Assembly (NCBI GenBank): GCA_034408725.1 | Contig: JAWXCN010000242.1 | Location: 1 to 10,092 of the forward strand | Source of the DNA: Candidatus Hydrogenedentota bacterium | GTDB taxonomy: Bacteria; Hydrogenedentota; Hydrogenedentia; Hydrogenedentales; SLHB01 | Length of the DNA: 10,092 bases | Reading direction: 5' to 3' | Part shown: positions 1 through 6,413 of the stretch, piece by piece | Layout of the letters: every line of letters begins with the position of its first letter | Position numbering within the stretch: position 1 is the first letter of the stretch | Made by a program: the position numbers and the translations under genes | The notes under the pieces: generated by a model | The model's database searches: none | The model's input: the letters and a program-made list of their open reading frames with translations, nothing else | What the model was told of the DNA's origin: nothing

Positions 1-299
1 ACGTGCTCCTGTAGCCTCCAAATTTATTGAGGCATTCGCGTATCCGAAGTGAAAGCGGCGCTGACACGCCGCAGTCCAAGGTGGCCACTAGACGTCCAAA
101 ACCCGCGCGGAGCGCCTTGGGGTGCGGTAGCGGGTAGCTGCCGCTTTCCCTTTCCCGGGCATGGTCGCGTCACAATTGAGCGAGATTGCCCTGGCTTTGA
201 TTCACGTGCTCCTGTAGCCTCCAAATTTATTGAGGCATTCGCGAATCCGAAGTGAAAGCGGCGCTGACACGCCGCAGTCCAAGGCGGCCAACTGACGTC
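1..299. repeat. Tandem direct repeat, ~203-bp period (copy 1 from 1, possibly truncated by the window edge; partial copy 2 from 204), built from REP-like hairpins
   Basis: 1-87 matches 204-290 with 2 mismatches (pos 41 T/A, pos 82 T/C); similarity continues to GACGTC at 91-96 and 294-299. Lies downstream of the methyltransferase stop codon. Confidence 0.95.
52..147. repeat. Inverted pair of REP-like palindromes (REPIN/BIME-like doublet)
   Basis: 52-79 AAAGCGGCG-CTGACA-CGCCGCAGTCCAA and, in the opposite orientation, 117-147 TTGGGGTGCGGTAGCGGGTAGCTGCCGCTTT. Further copies at 255-282 and 4715-4745. Confidence 0.75.
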
Positions 300-321
300 G
301 CGGTTGCCTCCCTGGTTTCGC

Positions 322-2009: not shown

Positions 2010-2164
2010 TCCTCCAAGTCGCTCTCCAACATCCTAACGCCAGGCCGCATCGGCCACAAACTACGAAAAGTGTAGCGCATTCTTTCCACCATAGACACGA
2101 AATAACTTGAATTGGCGTCCAGCTTTCGGCAACCTTGTCTATATTAAATCGTAGGAGTCGCCTT

Positions 2165-4627
2165 ATGCCGAGCAGCGACCTTGCGCCGCTTCGGATTTAT
2201 TGTGTTTGCGGACAGAAGATGAAGGTGTCCGAAGACATGTATGGACGCCCAGGCAAATGCGTTGCCTGCCGCCAGAAGATTCGCATTCCACGACCGGACG
2301 AACTTCCCGAAAACACCGGCGTCATTCATCTCAAGGACTACCCCCAGTTTCTCCGCAAGGTGAAAAAATCCGCATCGCGCGACCATGCGCACATTAACGA
2401 AGAAATCGAAGTCGCGCCCCTGCCGGACCTCGAACACAACGGAAAAGCTCGCAAGGCCATGGGCCCGCTCGACATTTTGGAGCCGCTTAGGACCATTCAT
2501 AGTCTCCTGACGAAGATCGAGCGGCGGATGGCCGCGCTTAAAACAGGCAAAGACGAAAACGGCAGCGAGGACGCAGCGAAACGCGACCCCAAATTCGCCG
2601 AACTACTTGCCAGACGCTCGAAAGTGCGCGCCGCACAGCAGGACCTCGAAGAAGAGCTTCGGCAGCGCCTCATGGAAACTGCAATCGAGCTGTCCGCCAC
2701 GCAGGAAAAGATCGCCGAGCTCAATCTCGGTGTGCGCGTAGGCGAGATAACGTTCGACGAGTACCGTGCGCAAGTAGACCGCATCCGGCGGCGCCGCGAC
2801 AACCATGAGCGACGGCAGACAAATCTTCGCGGATGGCTTACCGTCGATGACGCCTATGGCGCCGGCGGCTACGTCGATATGCCAATTGATCACGTCCCGA
2901 GGAATACGTCTCGTATCGCCTTCTCGAACGAAATTGACGATAGCGTCACGCTGTTCGACGCGCATGTCGATGGCTTGCGCCATGCATTGGCGCGGCGCGC
3001 AAACGCCGAACGGAAACTCAACGAAGTCAAAAAAATGAAACCCGGCGTTCTGAGCGAGCGGGGTTCAATGGAAGAACTAAGGGCCGAAGCCCGCGCCGAC
3101 CTTGAGCGCTCACGCGCACTCGTTCAATATTCGCGCGAAAGACTTGAACAACTCGCCGATGATTGCTCGAACGACGTGCAAGCGGCCGAAGCCCAGCTTG
3201 ACCACATGCGCGGCCGGTTGCAGGCCGGACAAATAAAAAGGGAAGTCTTCACCGTTGCGGAAGACTCCCTGACCCGCGCGAAAATCGATCTCACCAAGGC
3301 GCGCGCACTTGTCGTCCGCGCGCTCAACGCCAATAACGCCGAAGAAGTTCCACGCGCGCGCGGCACCTTTGTCGCGCGCCTTGCACGAGGAAGACCCGGC
3401 CTTCGCGCCCCAATGGACGCATGGGTCGCGTGGGCGGGCGCGGCGCTCGTGTTGCTGTCACTTTTCATTCCCATTGCCAATGGCGCAACGCCGCTTCAAC
3501 TCATGCGTATCGGGGCCTCCCAGGCCGCCAGCACGCACTGGTTCGCGACATTTCCCATTCTGATTGCAGTGATTGCCGCGGCAGCTTCGCTGATACCCGG
3601 TATTTCGGCGCGCGGGCTGGCGTATTGCGCGGTATGGCTGATGGGCAGCCTGTTGGCCGCCGCATTCGTGCATGAAGCGAGATATAGCAGCACCCCCGCG
3701 GCAGCGGCCCTGCACATTGGCGGCCCAATGCTCCTGCGGCCAGGAATACTCGTATACAGCATTGGCTTGCTTGGAGTCGCAGCGGCAGCGTGCATGGCGC
3801 TTCTCACCACGCGCGACGGACGCCGCGTCCTCCCCATTGCCGCAATCGCGTCACTGGCCGGTCTTGGCGCGGTCGCAACCGACATGGGCGGGATTCGTGT
3901 TCCGAATCCTGAAATGCGCGTGCAAACCAAATTGCTCGTCGATTCCATACCCGCAGTTCACGAAGCCACCGTCTCCATCGTCAATACCGGCGGACGCGAA
4001 CTCGTGCTCGCCAGAAACTCCACCGCCGCCAACGCGTATCAATTCTCCGTCGAGCGCCGCATCGGAAAAAATTCCGGGATTGATGTCAATCCACCCGTGA
4101 GTATCATCGTTGGGCAGACTCCCGTGCCAAGTGGCGGCGTCCCGCTCCCGCGTATCCCCGTGACGCAAGGACAAGCCGCGACATTCGTGTACCACCTGCC
4201 GCAAGGAGACTATCGGGTTACGTTGCAAGGCGTGCGCAACGCCGACCGGCAAGAGAATTCGTTCTCACTCGAATCGCTTCCCGCCGCGGAAACGATCCCG
4301 AATCCACCGGCATCCGAAACAGCGCAAATGGCTACACCGGCAGCGGCGCAACAATCACCAGGCGTCCTGACAGAAGCCTTGTCCGCATCTGTGTCACTGC
4401 GCGGCGTCGTGGTTGCGGGCAATCGTCCCGCGCAATTCTCTATCAGCGTAACGCTGCCGGATGGCGCGATGAAGGAACAATCCTACGCCATCGGAGACGA
4501 AGTGTTTACCGGTTGGAGAATCACAGAGTTCAATCCGGAAGAGCAGACCGTGACAATTGCGCGCGGCTCGCGCATCGTAATTCTACGGCGTGGGGAACCC
4601 CAACTGCTCGATCCCCGCGGATTGTAA
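2165..4627 (+). CDS. Hypothetical multidomain membrane protein: N-terminal Zn ribbon, long coiled coil, ~5 TM helices, Ig-like domain, C-terminal PilP/GspC-like beta domain
   Basis: 820-aa ORF with SD AGGAG at 2153-2157 before ATG 2165. CVCG...KCVAC at the N-terminus; E/R/L/A-rich heptads; five hydrophobic segments at ~3418-3880; beta-rich C-terminus (LRGVV...YAIGDEVFTGWRITEFNPEEQTVTI). Domain calls are by eye. Confidence 0.85.
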   Translation: MPSSDLAPLRIYCVCGQKMKVSEDMYGRPGKCVACRQKIRIPRPDELPENTGVIHLKDYPQFLRKVKKSASRDHAHINEEIEVAPLPDLEHNGKARKAMGPLDILEPLRTIHSLLTKIERRMAALKTGKDENGSEDAAKRDPKFAELLARRSKVRAAQQDLEEELRQRLMETAIELSATQEKIAELNLGVRVGEITFDEYRAQVDRIRRRRDNHERRQTNLRGWLTVDDAYGAGGYVDMPIDHVPRNTSRIAFSNEIDDSVTLFDAHVDGLRHALARRANAERKLNEVKKMKPGVLSERGSMEELRAEARADLERSRALVQYSRERLEQLADDCSNDVQAAEAQLDHMRGRLQAGQIKREVFTVAEDSLTRAKIDLTKARALVVRALNANNAEEVPRARGTFVARLARGRPGLRAPMDAWVAWAGAALVLLSLFIPIANGATPLQLMRIGASQAASTHWFATFPILIAVIAAAASLIPGISARGLAYCAVWLMGSLLAAAFVHEARYSSTPAAAALHIGGPMLLRPGILVYSIGLLGVAAAACMALLTTRDGRRVLPIAAIASLAGLGAVATDMGGIRVPNPEMRVQTKLLVDSIPAVHEATVSIVNTGGRELVLARNSTAANAYQFSVERRIGKNSGIDVNPPVSIIVGQTPVPSGGVPLPRIPVTQGQAATFVYHLPQGDYRVTLQGVRNADRQENSFSLESLPAAETIPNPPASETAQMATPAAAQQSPGVLTEALSASVSLRGVVVAGNRPAQFSISVTLPDGAMKEQSYAIGDEVFTGWRITEFNPEEQTVTIARGSRIVILRRGEPQLLDPRGL

Positions 4628-4668
4628 ATACTCATCGCCTCTGCCCTGCTCCTGACCAAAGAAATTGC

Positions 4669-4856
4669 CAGGGCAATCGCGCTTGATTGCGAAGCGATCT
4701 TGCCCAGGAAATGGAAAGCGGCAGCTACCCGCAGCCGCACTCCAAGGCGCTCCGCGCGGATTTCGGACGTCATTTGGCTGGGCGTAGCGCCGTTCCCCCG
4801 ACAGCGCCGCTTTTCGTTGGCGTCAGGTTATTCGGGACTTAAGCGCGATTGCACTG
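4669..4856. mobile_element. MITE (non-autonomous element, 188 bp) with ISAs1-like ends and a 10-bp target-site duplication
   Basis: Left TIR CAGGGCAATCGCGCTT (4669-4684) and right TIR AAGCGCGATTGCACTG (4841-4856) are 15/16 complementary. The perfect direct repeat AAGAAATTGC abuts both ends (4659-4668, 4857-4866). No transposase ORF. Related sequence at 91-193. Confidence 0.85.
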
Positions 4857-4988
4857 AAGAAATTGCTCTGGCGCGACATGCCGCACTTACTGTAAACTGA
4901 TCTCTGGGAAGAAATTGCGAGTGGAAAGTGGGTCCACACGCACTCGTTGTTAAATCTGGACCATTCCGTCGTGCGGAGCATGAAGTTT

Positions 4989-6413
4989 ATGACGGCAAAT
5001 CCCCGGCCCCTGCTGGAACAGCTCTTGGACAGCCGTGACGATACCGATATCATGGTCGCCGCCCGCGAACTTGCACCGCGAATAGATTTGGCCCTGCTTT
5101 CCGCCCGTCTTCTCGTCGATCTCCTTGACACGGGCTCCGCGGCGCGCGCCGCAGCGGCCGCCTTCATTCTTGGCGAATGGGCCGAACACGCGCGCGCTGC
5201 CTCGCCGAACCTCGTCTCCGCGTTGCGAAAAAACACCCGCCATCCAAACGTTACCGTGCGCCACTGGTGCATTACCGCGCTCATGCGTCTCGGCGCAAGC
5301 GCGGCGGGGGCGGTGTCCGAACTCGCGGACAGCCTGCGCGACCCCGATGACGGTGTGCGCGCCATAAGCGCGCACGCACTCGGCGGGCTCGGCAGGTTGG
5401 CGACGGGAGCGGTCCCCAAATTACTGATTGCAGTCTTCGATGACGCTGAAGAGGTGCGGCAAGCCGCTATCGCGGCACTCGTCCGCATCGATCCGCACGG
5501 AAATCGATATGTCCGGGAATTGGCCAGCGGCCTTGGGTCGCCATCCTCGCGCGCGCGGCAGTCCGCGATCGAGGCGCTCACCCGCATGCGCACTGCCGCC
5601 CTGCCAGCCGTACAGGCGCTCTGCGAACGAATGCACGATGAAAACGCCGCCGTCCGCCGAAAAACTGTCTATGCTCTCGTCTGCATCCTGCCCCCCGAAC
5701 GCGCGCTGCTTCACACGCTGGGGGTCGCCATGCATGACACGGACGAAGACGTGCGCATGGAAGCCTTGCGCGGATTCCGTGGATTTACCCATGCCGCGGC
5801 AGACGCCGCGCCGTATGTGATGGGCGCGCTGCGGGACAGCGCTCCGCGCATCCGGTTTTTCGCGTTGGAAATTCTAGAACGCATGACGCCTGACCTTGGC
5901 CCCATGATTGCTGCGGTCCGTGTTGCCATTGGTCACTGCCTGCACGATTCGTCCATGCTCGTGCAGACACGCGCCGTCCAAGCCAGTGGACGGCTCGCGC
6001 AATGGACCCATCCCGCGGACCCGCGCCTGCTCAATGCCTTGTTCGAGTCCGACGGCGCCCTGCGTCTTGCCGCGACGCGGGCCCTCGCCCAAATGCACAA
6101 TGATCCAGCCGCCCTTGACGCGCTTCGATTCCGGCTTGCCGATGAACGGGCCGACGTGCGAGCGGCCGCATGCCGCGCATTGGTGGAATTGGGCGAGCGC
6201 CCTTCAGCCATCATCCCCTCCCTCCTCCAGGCCTTGGGCGACTCAGACCTGGAGATTCAGCGAGAGGCCCTGGCGATTCTCGAAGTTATTGGGGCCGATG
6301 CTTACGACGCGCTTGATGCAGTCGCTGCGAAAAGGTCGGACAGCAATTTGGACATTCGCAATGCCGCGGACCGCGCATCGGCAAGCATCCTCCGCAAACC
6401 TGAAGCTGTTTAG
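4989..6413 (+). CDS. HEAT-repeat (HEAT_2/PBS-lyase-like) protein
   Basis: About 12 repeats of L-x-D-x-x-x-x-VR-x-x-A-x-x-AL (e.g. LRDPDDGVRAISAHALG, LADERADVRAAACRAL). GGAG at 4975-4978 favours ATG 4989; ATG 4980 is an alternative. Confidence 0.9.
   Translation: MTANPRPLLEQLLDSRDDTDIMVAARELAPRIDLALLSARLLVDLLDTGSAARAAAAAFILGEWAEHARAASPNLVSALRKNTRHPNVTVRHWCITALMRLGASAAGAVSELADSLRDPDDGVRAISAHALGGLGRLATGAVPKLLIAVFDDAEEVRQAAIAALVRIDPHGNRYVRELASGLGSPSSRARQSAIEALTRMRTAALPAVQALCERMHDENAAVRRKTVYALVCILPPERALLHTLGVAMHDTDEDVRMEALRGFRGFTHAAADAAPYVMGALRDSAPRIRFFALEILERMTPDLGPMIAAVRVAIGHCLHDSSMLVQTRAVQASGRLAQWTHPADPRLLNALFESDGALRLAATRALAQMHNDPAALDALRFRLADERADVRAAACRALVELGERPSAIIPSLLQALGDSDLEIQREALAILEVIGADAYDALDAVAAKRSDSNLDIRNAADRASASILRKPEAV

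Follow-up and report, generated by a model that had tools for sequence, protein, structure and literature searches.

A probable ISAs1-derived MITE with REP cargo in the genome of a Candidatus Hydrogenedentota bacterium

A 188-bp insert between two genes of a Candidatus Hydrogenedentota bacterium is very probably a MITE derived from an ISAs1 element, carrying REP palindromes as captured cargo and moved in trans by an ISAs1 DDE transposase. It lies at positions 4669-4856 of a stretch of 10,092 nucleotides (hereafter the window), which is the whole of contig C242 in a draft genome of 5.17 Mb (280 contigs, 92% complete). I assign the insert to an ISAs1-derived MITE family because its ends are identical to those of ISAs1 elements, a 10-bp target-site duplication (TSD) recurs among its copies, its right arm is homologous to that of an ISAs1 element, it is present in many copies, and it is absent from the corresponding locus of a congener.

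The element and its locus

The insert is non-coding, carries TIRs that agree at 15 of 16 positions, and is abutted on both sides by an exact 10-bp TSD (Table 1); an initial annotation of the window had made these points, coordinates included, and they held when the sequence was read directly. A repeat search of the window returns the TIR arms as 16 nt long, 94% complementary, and 156 nt apart. Just inside the left TIR is a partial inverted copy of it, so that the left arm is a small palindrome on its own, and 39-bp TIR/TIR' pairs of this kind also occur in other family copies (C104, C64, C69, and C212). The inner copy is possibly a second, putative transposase-binding site. Further in, the stem of a REP-like hairpin, AAAGCGGC-N11-GCCGCACTCCAA, occupies 4715-4745 and its degenerate inverted partner, CAGCGCCGCTTT, occupies 4802-4813, both exactly where they had first been placed. 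The two inverted REPs and their spacer are intact in the longer, 213-bp units of the family described below, whereas the window copy has them in degenerate form, the outer half of the inverted partner being replaced in the 188-bp type.

Table 1. Features of the element and its surroundings in the window.
Feature	Position	Strand	Remark
Left TSD copy, AAGAAATTGC	4659..4668	.	Exact match to 4857-4866
Left TIR, CAGGGCAATCGCGCTT	4669..4684	+	Family consensus extends to CAGGGCAATCGCGCTTAA
Inner inverted partial TIR copy, AAGCGATCTTGCCCAG	4692..4707	-	Read in the sequence
REP-like hairpin with conserved flanks, AAAGCGGC-N11-GCCGCACTCCAAGGCG	4715..4749	+	
Spacer separating the REP halves	4750..4791	+	Own GC-rich hairpin potential
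Degenerate inverted REP partner, GACAGCGCCGCTTTTCG	4792..4816	-	Compared with the units of C64
Subterminal right arm, GCGTCAGGTTATTCGGGACTT	4820..4840	+	Left over from an ISAs1 transposase gene (3' end)
Right TIR, AAGCGCGATTGCACTG	4841..4856	-	15/16 positions match the left TIR
Right TSD copy	4857..4866	.	Exact 10-bp match to the left copy
Upstream gene, 830 aa, no Pfam family	2135..4627	+	Stop codon 41 bp before the element
Downstream HEAT-repeat gene	4981..6413	+	Listed ORF starts at TTG 4947; ATG 4981 agrees with where the G003 ortholog starts
Fragment of a same-family array, running off the contig start	1..300	-	BLAST, C242:91-193

No listed ORF is contained in the element; the only ones to overlap it are mechanical ORFs of 66, 96, and 256 aa, the last of which has no Pfam family. 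The early suggestion that the element can fold back on itself is supported by structure prediction, with an RNA fold of the 188 bases at -85.9 kcal/mol (z -2.96; one of 200 shuffles folds as well) and a DNA fold at -46.6 kcal/mol (z -2.57). The duplicated word AAGAAATTGC is found a third time at 4909-4918, 52 bp downstream and outside the element, and has 18 occurrences genome-wide against about 5 expected from base composition; it is thus no common motif, and the target region already had a local repeat of this word.

The intergenic gap that holds the element measures 353 bp in the window, and the HEAT-repeat gene begins about 125 bp past the element. A second piece of the same family lies at the start of the contig, where a truncated unit, a tail, a left TIR (193-178), REP1, a spacer, REP2, and a tail follow one another; its segment 91-193 aligns to positions 1-103 of the 188-bp query at 86%. 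Both genes that flank the element are present in all four congeners and lie on one contig only in congener G003, where they are 51 bp apart with no element between them. The proteins of G003 are only 62-69% identical, such that the intergenic DNA is not alignable base by base; the comparison demonstrates that a relative lacks the element, but does not give an exact empty site. No empty-site allele was seen over 4300-5200 in the contigs of four microbial-mat metagenomes, which is no proof of absence, as contigs drop rare variants; three mat contig pieces (X1, X3, and X4) cross the junction from flank to element, and no joint skips the element. Thus, of the empty site foreseen in the initial annotation, what was seen is the absence of the element from the syntenic G003 locus, and neither an exact empty site nor an empty allele. 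In another congener, G002, a REP doublet also lies upstream of the ortholog of the HEAT-repeat gene.

Could the insert be a conserved structured RNA or a regulatory intergenic element, and not mobile DNA at all? The genes on either side of it are co-oriented, its fold is more stable than those of shuffles, and the G002 ortholog has its own upstream doublet, all of which would suit such a role. However, an Rfam search of the element gave no match at E<=1, a scan of 4550-5050 for promoter-like and terminator-like sites found none, and the syntenic G003 locus is without the element. Above all, the sequence sits at dozens of unrelated loci with TSDs of their own, and this multicopy distribution already refutes the idea, to which I attach next to no probability.

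A dispersed family with recurrent duplications

A BLAST search of the genome with the 188 bases yields 207 HSPs, and the genome has about 66 clusters of arm modules, which bears out the expectation that the element is multicopy. Since 27 of these 66 clusters touch contig ends, the family accounts for many of the contig breaks in the draft genome. When the query was extended by 150-bp flanks, alignment starts piled up at -1, 0, and +1 (22, 21, and 18 HSPs; 61 in total) and alignment ends at 123 (30 HSPs) and at 188 (4 HSPs), which indicates a sharp left boundary and at least two right-hand forms. Seven copies, which span all or nearly all of the 188 bases (query end 179-188), show 79-90% identity to that of the window, and in six of them the preceding DNA is not unique but a conserved 'tail' (...AATAAATTTGAAGGCTTCAGGAACACGTGAATCGAAAC).

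The tail is part of a modular plan of the longer copies, seen in the tandem array of C64, where 213-bp units are set head to tail, each in the order left TIR, inner inverted TIR copy, REP1, spacer, inverted REP2, tail. Complete arrays close with a 188-type unit bearing the right TIR, and the window copy, a single terminal unit, is the shortest complete form having a full right arm. Many family units lie in such tandem arrays and are hence not all separate insertions; the first two units of C64 are near-identical, which points to local duplication, and not transposition, as the source of part of the copy number. Elements of the family range from 104 to 619 bp, and copies are 79-93% identical to that of the window. 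Two solitary 213-bp units (C104 and C123) end without a right TIR. I considered that such units might be leftovers of the excision of an inner 188-bp element and rejected this, as their flanks do not repeat.

To look for TSDs, every left-facing TIR was paired with every right-facing TIR within 6 kb, giving 30 pairs. Three of these have flanks that agree at 10 of 10 positions: the window copy (188 bp), C152:35294-35701 (408 bp, two units), and C31:6416-6736 (321 bp). Two contig breaks could be bridged by metagenome contigs of the same population, of which L183 joins C203 to C178 and reveals a 403-bp element with a 10/10 TSD, and L185 extends C229 and reveals a 619-bp element of three units with a 9/10 TSD. 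A further copy, C31:30541-30889, has a 10/10 TSD on the condition that its left end is taken to be CATGCC, which is a base shorter than the consensus; C99:7445-7845 and a 104-bp copy on C18 have 9/10, and C200:41686-41814 has 8/10. I compiled this set manually, starting from 24 left ends preceded by unique DNA and from 13 right ends (the others are decayed or lie at contig ends); with the window copy included, its nine TSDs comprise five of 10/10, three of 9/10, and one of 8/10. Three 10/10 pairs among 30, with more once contig breaks are bridged, make the TSD more than a matter of chance. Other copies therefore do have duplications of their own, as a transposing element was initially expected to show, and besides the window copy they agree at 10/10 in four elements, at 9/10 in three, and at 8/10 in one, all at the same boundaries; at least two two-ended copies (C7:~1960-2153 and C164:8011-~8330) have no matching flanks.

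The element is accordingly short (below about 600 bp), without genes, bounded by TIRs, flanked by a TSD of fixed length in independent copies, and multicopy and dispersed, which are the properties by which MITEs are recognised.

Ends and right arm shared with ISAs1 elements

The family consensus end, CAGGGCAATCGCGCTTAA, is identical to both ends of 1203-bp ISs in other phyla, and the ISAs1-type ends of the initial annotation are supported by one of these, in a Nitrosomonas MAG (L127), where an 18-mer pair spanning 1203 bp encloses an ORF of 371 aa that scores 406.6 bits on the ISAs1 profile NF033564 (cut-off 70) and also matches PF13808 and PF01609. This IS lies between two copies of the 10-bp TSD GTATTGATGT if one takes into account that 12 bp of its left tip are duplicated, and five more copies of 1203-1220 bp (L064, L098, L109, L110, and L130) have 10/10 TSDs, with 9/10 in one further copy. 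In the genomes of other species the exact 18-mer was found in at least 119 stretches, with inverted pairs about 1.2 kb apart; most of the stretches listed are from Methylococcales, Nitrosomonas, and Sedimenticola.

ISs with matching ends are thus found in other phyla, and elements of the same family also occur closer to the host. NF033564 has matches in 32 of 133 genomes of the host's own order, in 16 of 53 of the same family, and in none of the four congeners searched. The ends of the ISAs1 elements of the order read CAGGGCAATCGCAYTWAA and are accompanied by 10-bp TSDs; among 12 loci inspected, CAGGGCAATCGC is present at both ends in ten, at one end in one, and at neither in one, and five of the ten (L174, L176, L177, L179, and L181) have clean 10-bp TSDs.

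The likeness extends beyond the tips on one side. Over its last 33-36 nt, the MITE right arm matches ISAs1 right ends, those of L100, L127, and L118 among them, at 83-86%, and the transposase ORF of L127 ends ...cgtcgggttattgggataatttaa, with its stop codon inside the right TIR. The left arm matches the ISs over 18-22 nt only, and a BLAST comparison of the 408-bp copy with 92 loci that have the TIR or an ISAs1 element gave matches to the right arm and the TIRs alone, not to the tail. ISAs1-family target duplications are 8-10 bp long. The MITE ends start with CAGGG and the MITE has a 10-bp target duplication, as have the L127-type ISs, to which its terminal 18 bp are identical, and ISArsp11 of Arthrobacter, an ISAs1 member whose IRs start CAGGGCT and whose DR is 10 bp according to one table of its source (PMC6305408, Table 3). 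The MITE also retains, in its right arm, the last codons of the transposase. Unlike these ISs it has no transposase gene, measures 188 bp as against 1.2-1.6 kb, is filled by a REP doublet unrelated to the IS, and has no autonomous relative that I could find in the host assembly.

That last point deserves attention, for the search for an ISAs1 transposase in the source genome came out negative: NF033564 gave no match at E<=0.01 in the 280 contigs (92% complete), and tblastn with three ISAs1 transposases reached a best E of only 0.019. IS copies often go unassembled in draft genomes, so a missing transposase does not show its absence. A scan of metagenome contigs for the right arm retrieved three contigs, all of them MITE copies of the same population, and no IS. 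The only kilobase-scale TIR pair in the genome, C153:31370-33159, was considered as the autonomous partner, but its flanks agree at 6 of 10 positions and it encloses unrelated ORFs, and I treat it as a chance pair; one of the enclosed ORFs is phage-portal-like by eye. An ISAs1 transposase gene bounded by CAGGGCAATCGCGCTT and with a right end reading ...GGGTTATTCGGGACTTAAGCGCGATTGCCCTG would identify the parent IS.

A transposase of another DDE family that makes 9-10-bp duplications, for instance a relative of IS4 or IS5/IS903, might move the element in place of an ISAs1 enzyme, and the lack of an ISAs1 match in the assembly would fit this, as would the relatedness of the ISAs1 model to other DDE_Tnp_1 families (the L127 protein itself scores 41.6 bits on the IS1380 model, cut-off 180). 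Yet the autonomous elements found with these ends all encode an ISAs1-type protein, verified by NF033564 for L127 and, for the split ORFs of L110 and L112, resembling the L127 protein by eye only, and ten ISAs1 loci of the host's own order carry CAGGGCAATCGC ends. I regard another DDE family as very unlikely. Of the initial proposal of spread in trans by an ISAs1 transposase, then, the ISAs1 derivation of the ends and the length of the TSD stand, with the homology of the right arm besides, while no transposase was found in the assembly or in four congeners and movement in trans is a deduction. More broadly, three things that had been named in advance as counting against a mobile element of this kind turned out the other way: TSDs recur, matching ISAs1 ends exist, and the G003 locus is without the element.

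REP palindromes inside and outside the element

With up to 2 mismatches allowed, the REP core CCGCACTCCAAGGCG is found at 287 genomic sites, and 104 of these match it exactly. In 77 the core stands behind a MITE left arm, in 49 behind a tail, and in 12 at a contig edge, and the other 149 are free; at most 126 of the 287, or about four in ten, therefore belong to MITE units. The half-site AAAGCGG is kept in 132 of the 149 free cores. Among the free cores, 23 adjacent pairs form REPIN-like doublets in the orientation (-,+), mostly 112-127 bp apart, which is the opposite of the (+,-) orientation of the MITE doublet. A search of 40 relatives found the REP part of the element (query positions 34-156) in 3 genomes and its TIR arms in none. 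The free cores, the relatives that have the REP without the TIR, and the fixed place of the REP in the MITE together indicate that the REP is older and more widespread than the MITE, and that it was captured by the element.

These palindromes raise the question of whether the insert is simply an ordinary REPIN moved by a RAYT (an HUH Y1 transposase), with CAGGG ends and a flanking repeat that are incidental. In favour of a RAYT system are the REP doublet of the interior with its long hairpin fold, the presence of free doublets with the same core, and five Y1_Tnp matches in the genome, of which three exceed the Pfam cut-off. The genes and repeats do not keep company, however: no REP core lies within 3 kb of the five Y1_Tnp loci, except for a MITE copy 2 kb from the weakest match (C274), and the repeat that stands before the best Y1 gene (C113) is a different one. 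A RAYT flanked by the same REP, which the initial annotation had thought worth considering, was accordingly not found among these five loci. Furthermore, the 10-bp TSDs recur at TIR boundaries and not at REP boundaries, the TIR is identical in 18 nt to that of a verified ISAs1 element, and the right arm shares homology with the IS 3' end. RAYT-driven insertion of REPINs is not known to produce 10-bp duplications. A RAYT-driven origin is in my estimation highly improbable. Measured against REPINs as portrayed in part of the original account (Bertels and Rainey, 2011; PMC3116915), the element is likewise extragenic, present in many repeats, and capable of folding into a long hairpin, and its REP core forms free doublets in this genome; it differs from what that part of the account describes in that its doublet lies inside DDE-type TIRs with 10-bp TSDs, in a REP orientation reversed relative to the free doublets, and with no REP-flanked RAYT found.

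The ISAs1-ended MITE is not confined to this host. MITEs of 164 bp with the identical 18-mer are present in Methylococcales and Methyloglobulus (L062 and L120, TSD 10/10), a 174-bp MITE with the same 18-mer is present in a Dehalococcoidia MAG (L069, TSD 9/10), and a 254-bp MITE, again with the identical 18-mer, is present in Methylobacter (L052, TSD 10/10; L105, 9/10). The Methylobacter MITE encloses an inverted doublet of a host palindrome, GCCGCGACTTCAGTCGCG, which has 95 occurrences in the Methylobacter genome against 0 for a control pattern; it is found inside the TIR pairs L052, L105, L190, and L084, and also free, with no TIR in the flanks retrieved (L186 and L188). The Methylobacter element is a second, independent MITE with ISAs1 ends and its host's own REP doublet. 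All of these MITEs from other phyla share the 18-bp TIR and the 10-bp TSDs with the family in the window, and the 254-bp one shares the possession of a REP doublet; their interiors, in contrast, are unrelated, the Methylobacter doublet being made of the palindrome of its own host.

Discussion

Correia and RUP elements are classical bacterial MITEs. The family described here differs from such classical MITEs in its internal tandem units of 213 bp, each of which repeats the left TIR. Its likeness to another set, the MaeMITEs of Microcystis, as given in the part of the source drawn on (PMC2779907), lies in being shorter than 600 bp, non-coding, bounded by TIRs and TSDs, intergenic, and present in tens of copies. 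The initial annotation held it to be possibly an undescribed MITE family. No description of an ISAs1-derived MITE was found in the passages covered of papers that name both ISAs1 and MITEs; as a MITE, the element belongs to a known kind. Its REP cargo, the recurrence of such a MITE in a second phylum, and its units that repeat the left end set the family apart from ordinary MITEs.

How might such an element have come about and spread? Of the parent IS only the ends would remain, namely the 18-bp TIR and about 35 bp on the right that include the last transposase codons, the interior having been swapped for two REP-like palindromes of the host that form a doublet. Acting in trans, a DDE transposase of the ISAs1 family would bind both TIRs and excise or copy the element, which would be inserted at staggered cuts 10 bp apart, and repair of these cuts would leave the 10-bp duplication. 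As the REP doublet is at the same place in all copies, it would have been captured once, by a progenitor, and then spread as cargo. The longer copies, in which 213-bp units that each have their own left TIR precede a 188-type terminal unit, would move either whole or from an inner left TIR, and use of the inner TIR would yield the 188-bp form. The copies are only 79-93% identical to that of the window and no transposase was found; the family is thus probably old and now immobile in this genome, maybe a fossil.

REPs are among the commonest bacterial repeats and are usually taken to be spread by RAYT enzymes alone. The two hosts in which ISAs1 ends enclose a local REP doublet raise a broader and more tentative possibility, which I consider somewhat less probable than its opposite: that ISAs1-type MITE shells repeatedly take up the REP doublet of their host and so provide a RAYT-free, DDE-transposase route for REPs. 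If true, up to 126 of the 287 REP cores of this genome would owe their position to this route, the palindromic cargo may help the element by bringing its two ends together, and multi-unit copies would be the sources of shorter daughters such as the 188-bp copy in the window. With that many cores inside ISAs1-ended units, and with a second host at hand, the hitch-hiking of REPs on a DDE-type MITE becomes directly testable. Finally, the family offers natural mini-substrates for the poorly studied ISAs1 family, namely elements of 104-619 bp, the 18-bp end, and its inverted copy further in, and these could serve the study of the ISAs1 transposase.

Results and discussion

The 10-bp word duplicated on either side of the window's MITE, AAGAAATTGC, recurs as a third exact copy a short distance downstream. 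As this word occurs only 18 times genome-wide, the additional copy implies a local direct repeat in the target region that either predates the insertion or is independent of it. The 1203-bp ISAs1-family element of the Nitrosomonas MAG locus (L127) has its left tip directly duplicated over 12 bp (CAGGGCAATCGC CAGGGCAATCGCGCTT), within the TSD.

The start of the contig falls within another, partial array of the MITE family, where the assembly breaks; across the whole genome, 27 of the 66 clusters of this family touch contig ends. The compact variant on contig C7 comprises a first unit with REP1 set directly against REP2, without the spacer, and a second of 52 bp, whose sole parts are the left TIR, some 14 bases from the right arm and the right TIR. 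The flanks of this variant do not match.

Coordinates of the repeats and genes discussed (C, contigs of the draft genome G000; G002, congener; L, loci)
Feature	Location	Strand	Details
Third TSD word	window 4909-4918		52 bp downstream of element
Partial array	window 1-300	minus	tail, left TIR (193-178), REP1, REP2, tail
Compact MITE variant	G000:C7:1960-2153	minus	two units
Direct repeat pair, 104 bp	G000:C200:35724-35827 and 40085-40188		98% identical, 4.36 kb apart
MITE-family copy	G000:C200:40313-40503
Repeat before Y1_Tnp gene	L031:1122-1550 (G000:C113)
REP doublet, same core	L049:1320-1430 (G002:C48, same genus)		~100 bp upstream of HEAT-repeat gene ortholog start
Duplicated ISAs1 tip	L127:1989-2018
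830-aa ORF	window 2135-4627		upstream of element

Other repeats lie outside this family. The 104-bp pair on C200 brackets a dnaE2-like gene and is unrelated to the ISAs1-type MITEs, yet adjoins one of their copies. A different, tandem-looking repeat, whose spurious ORFs read ...RRDYGAQ... twice, precedes the best Y1_Tnp gene (212 aa, IS200/RAYT-like) on C113, and may represent a REP family belonging to this gene.

The 830-aa ORF matches no Pfam family at E<=0.001 and is kept in all four congeners (4/4) at 52-69% identity. In one congener, G002, the REP doublet upstream of the HEAT-repeat ortholog is without ISAs1-type ends; it is a separate REP arrival upstream of the same gene.
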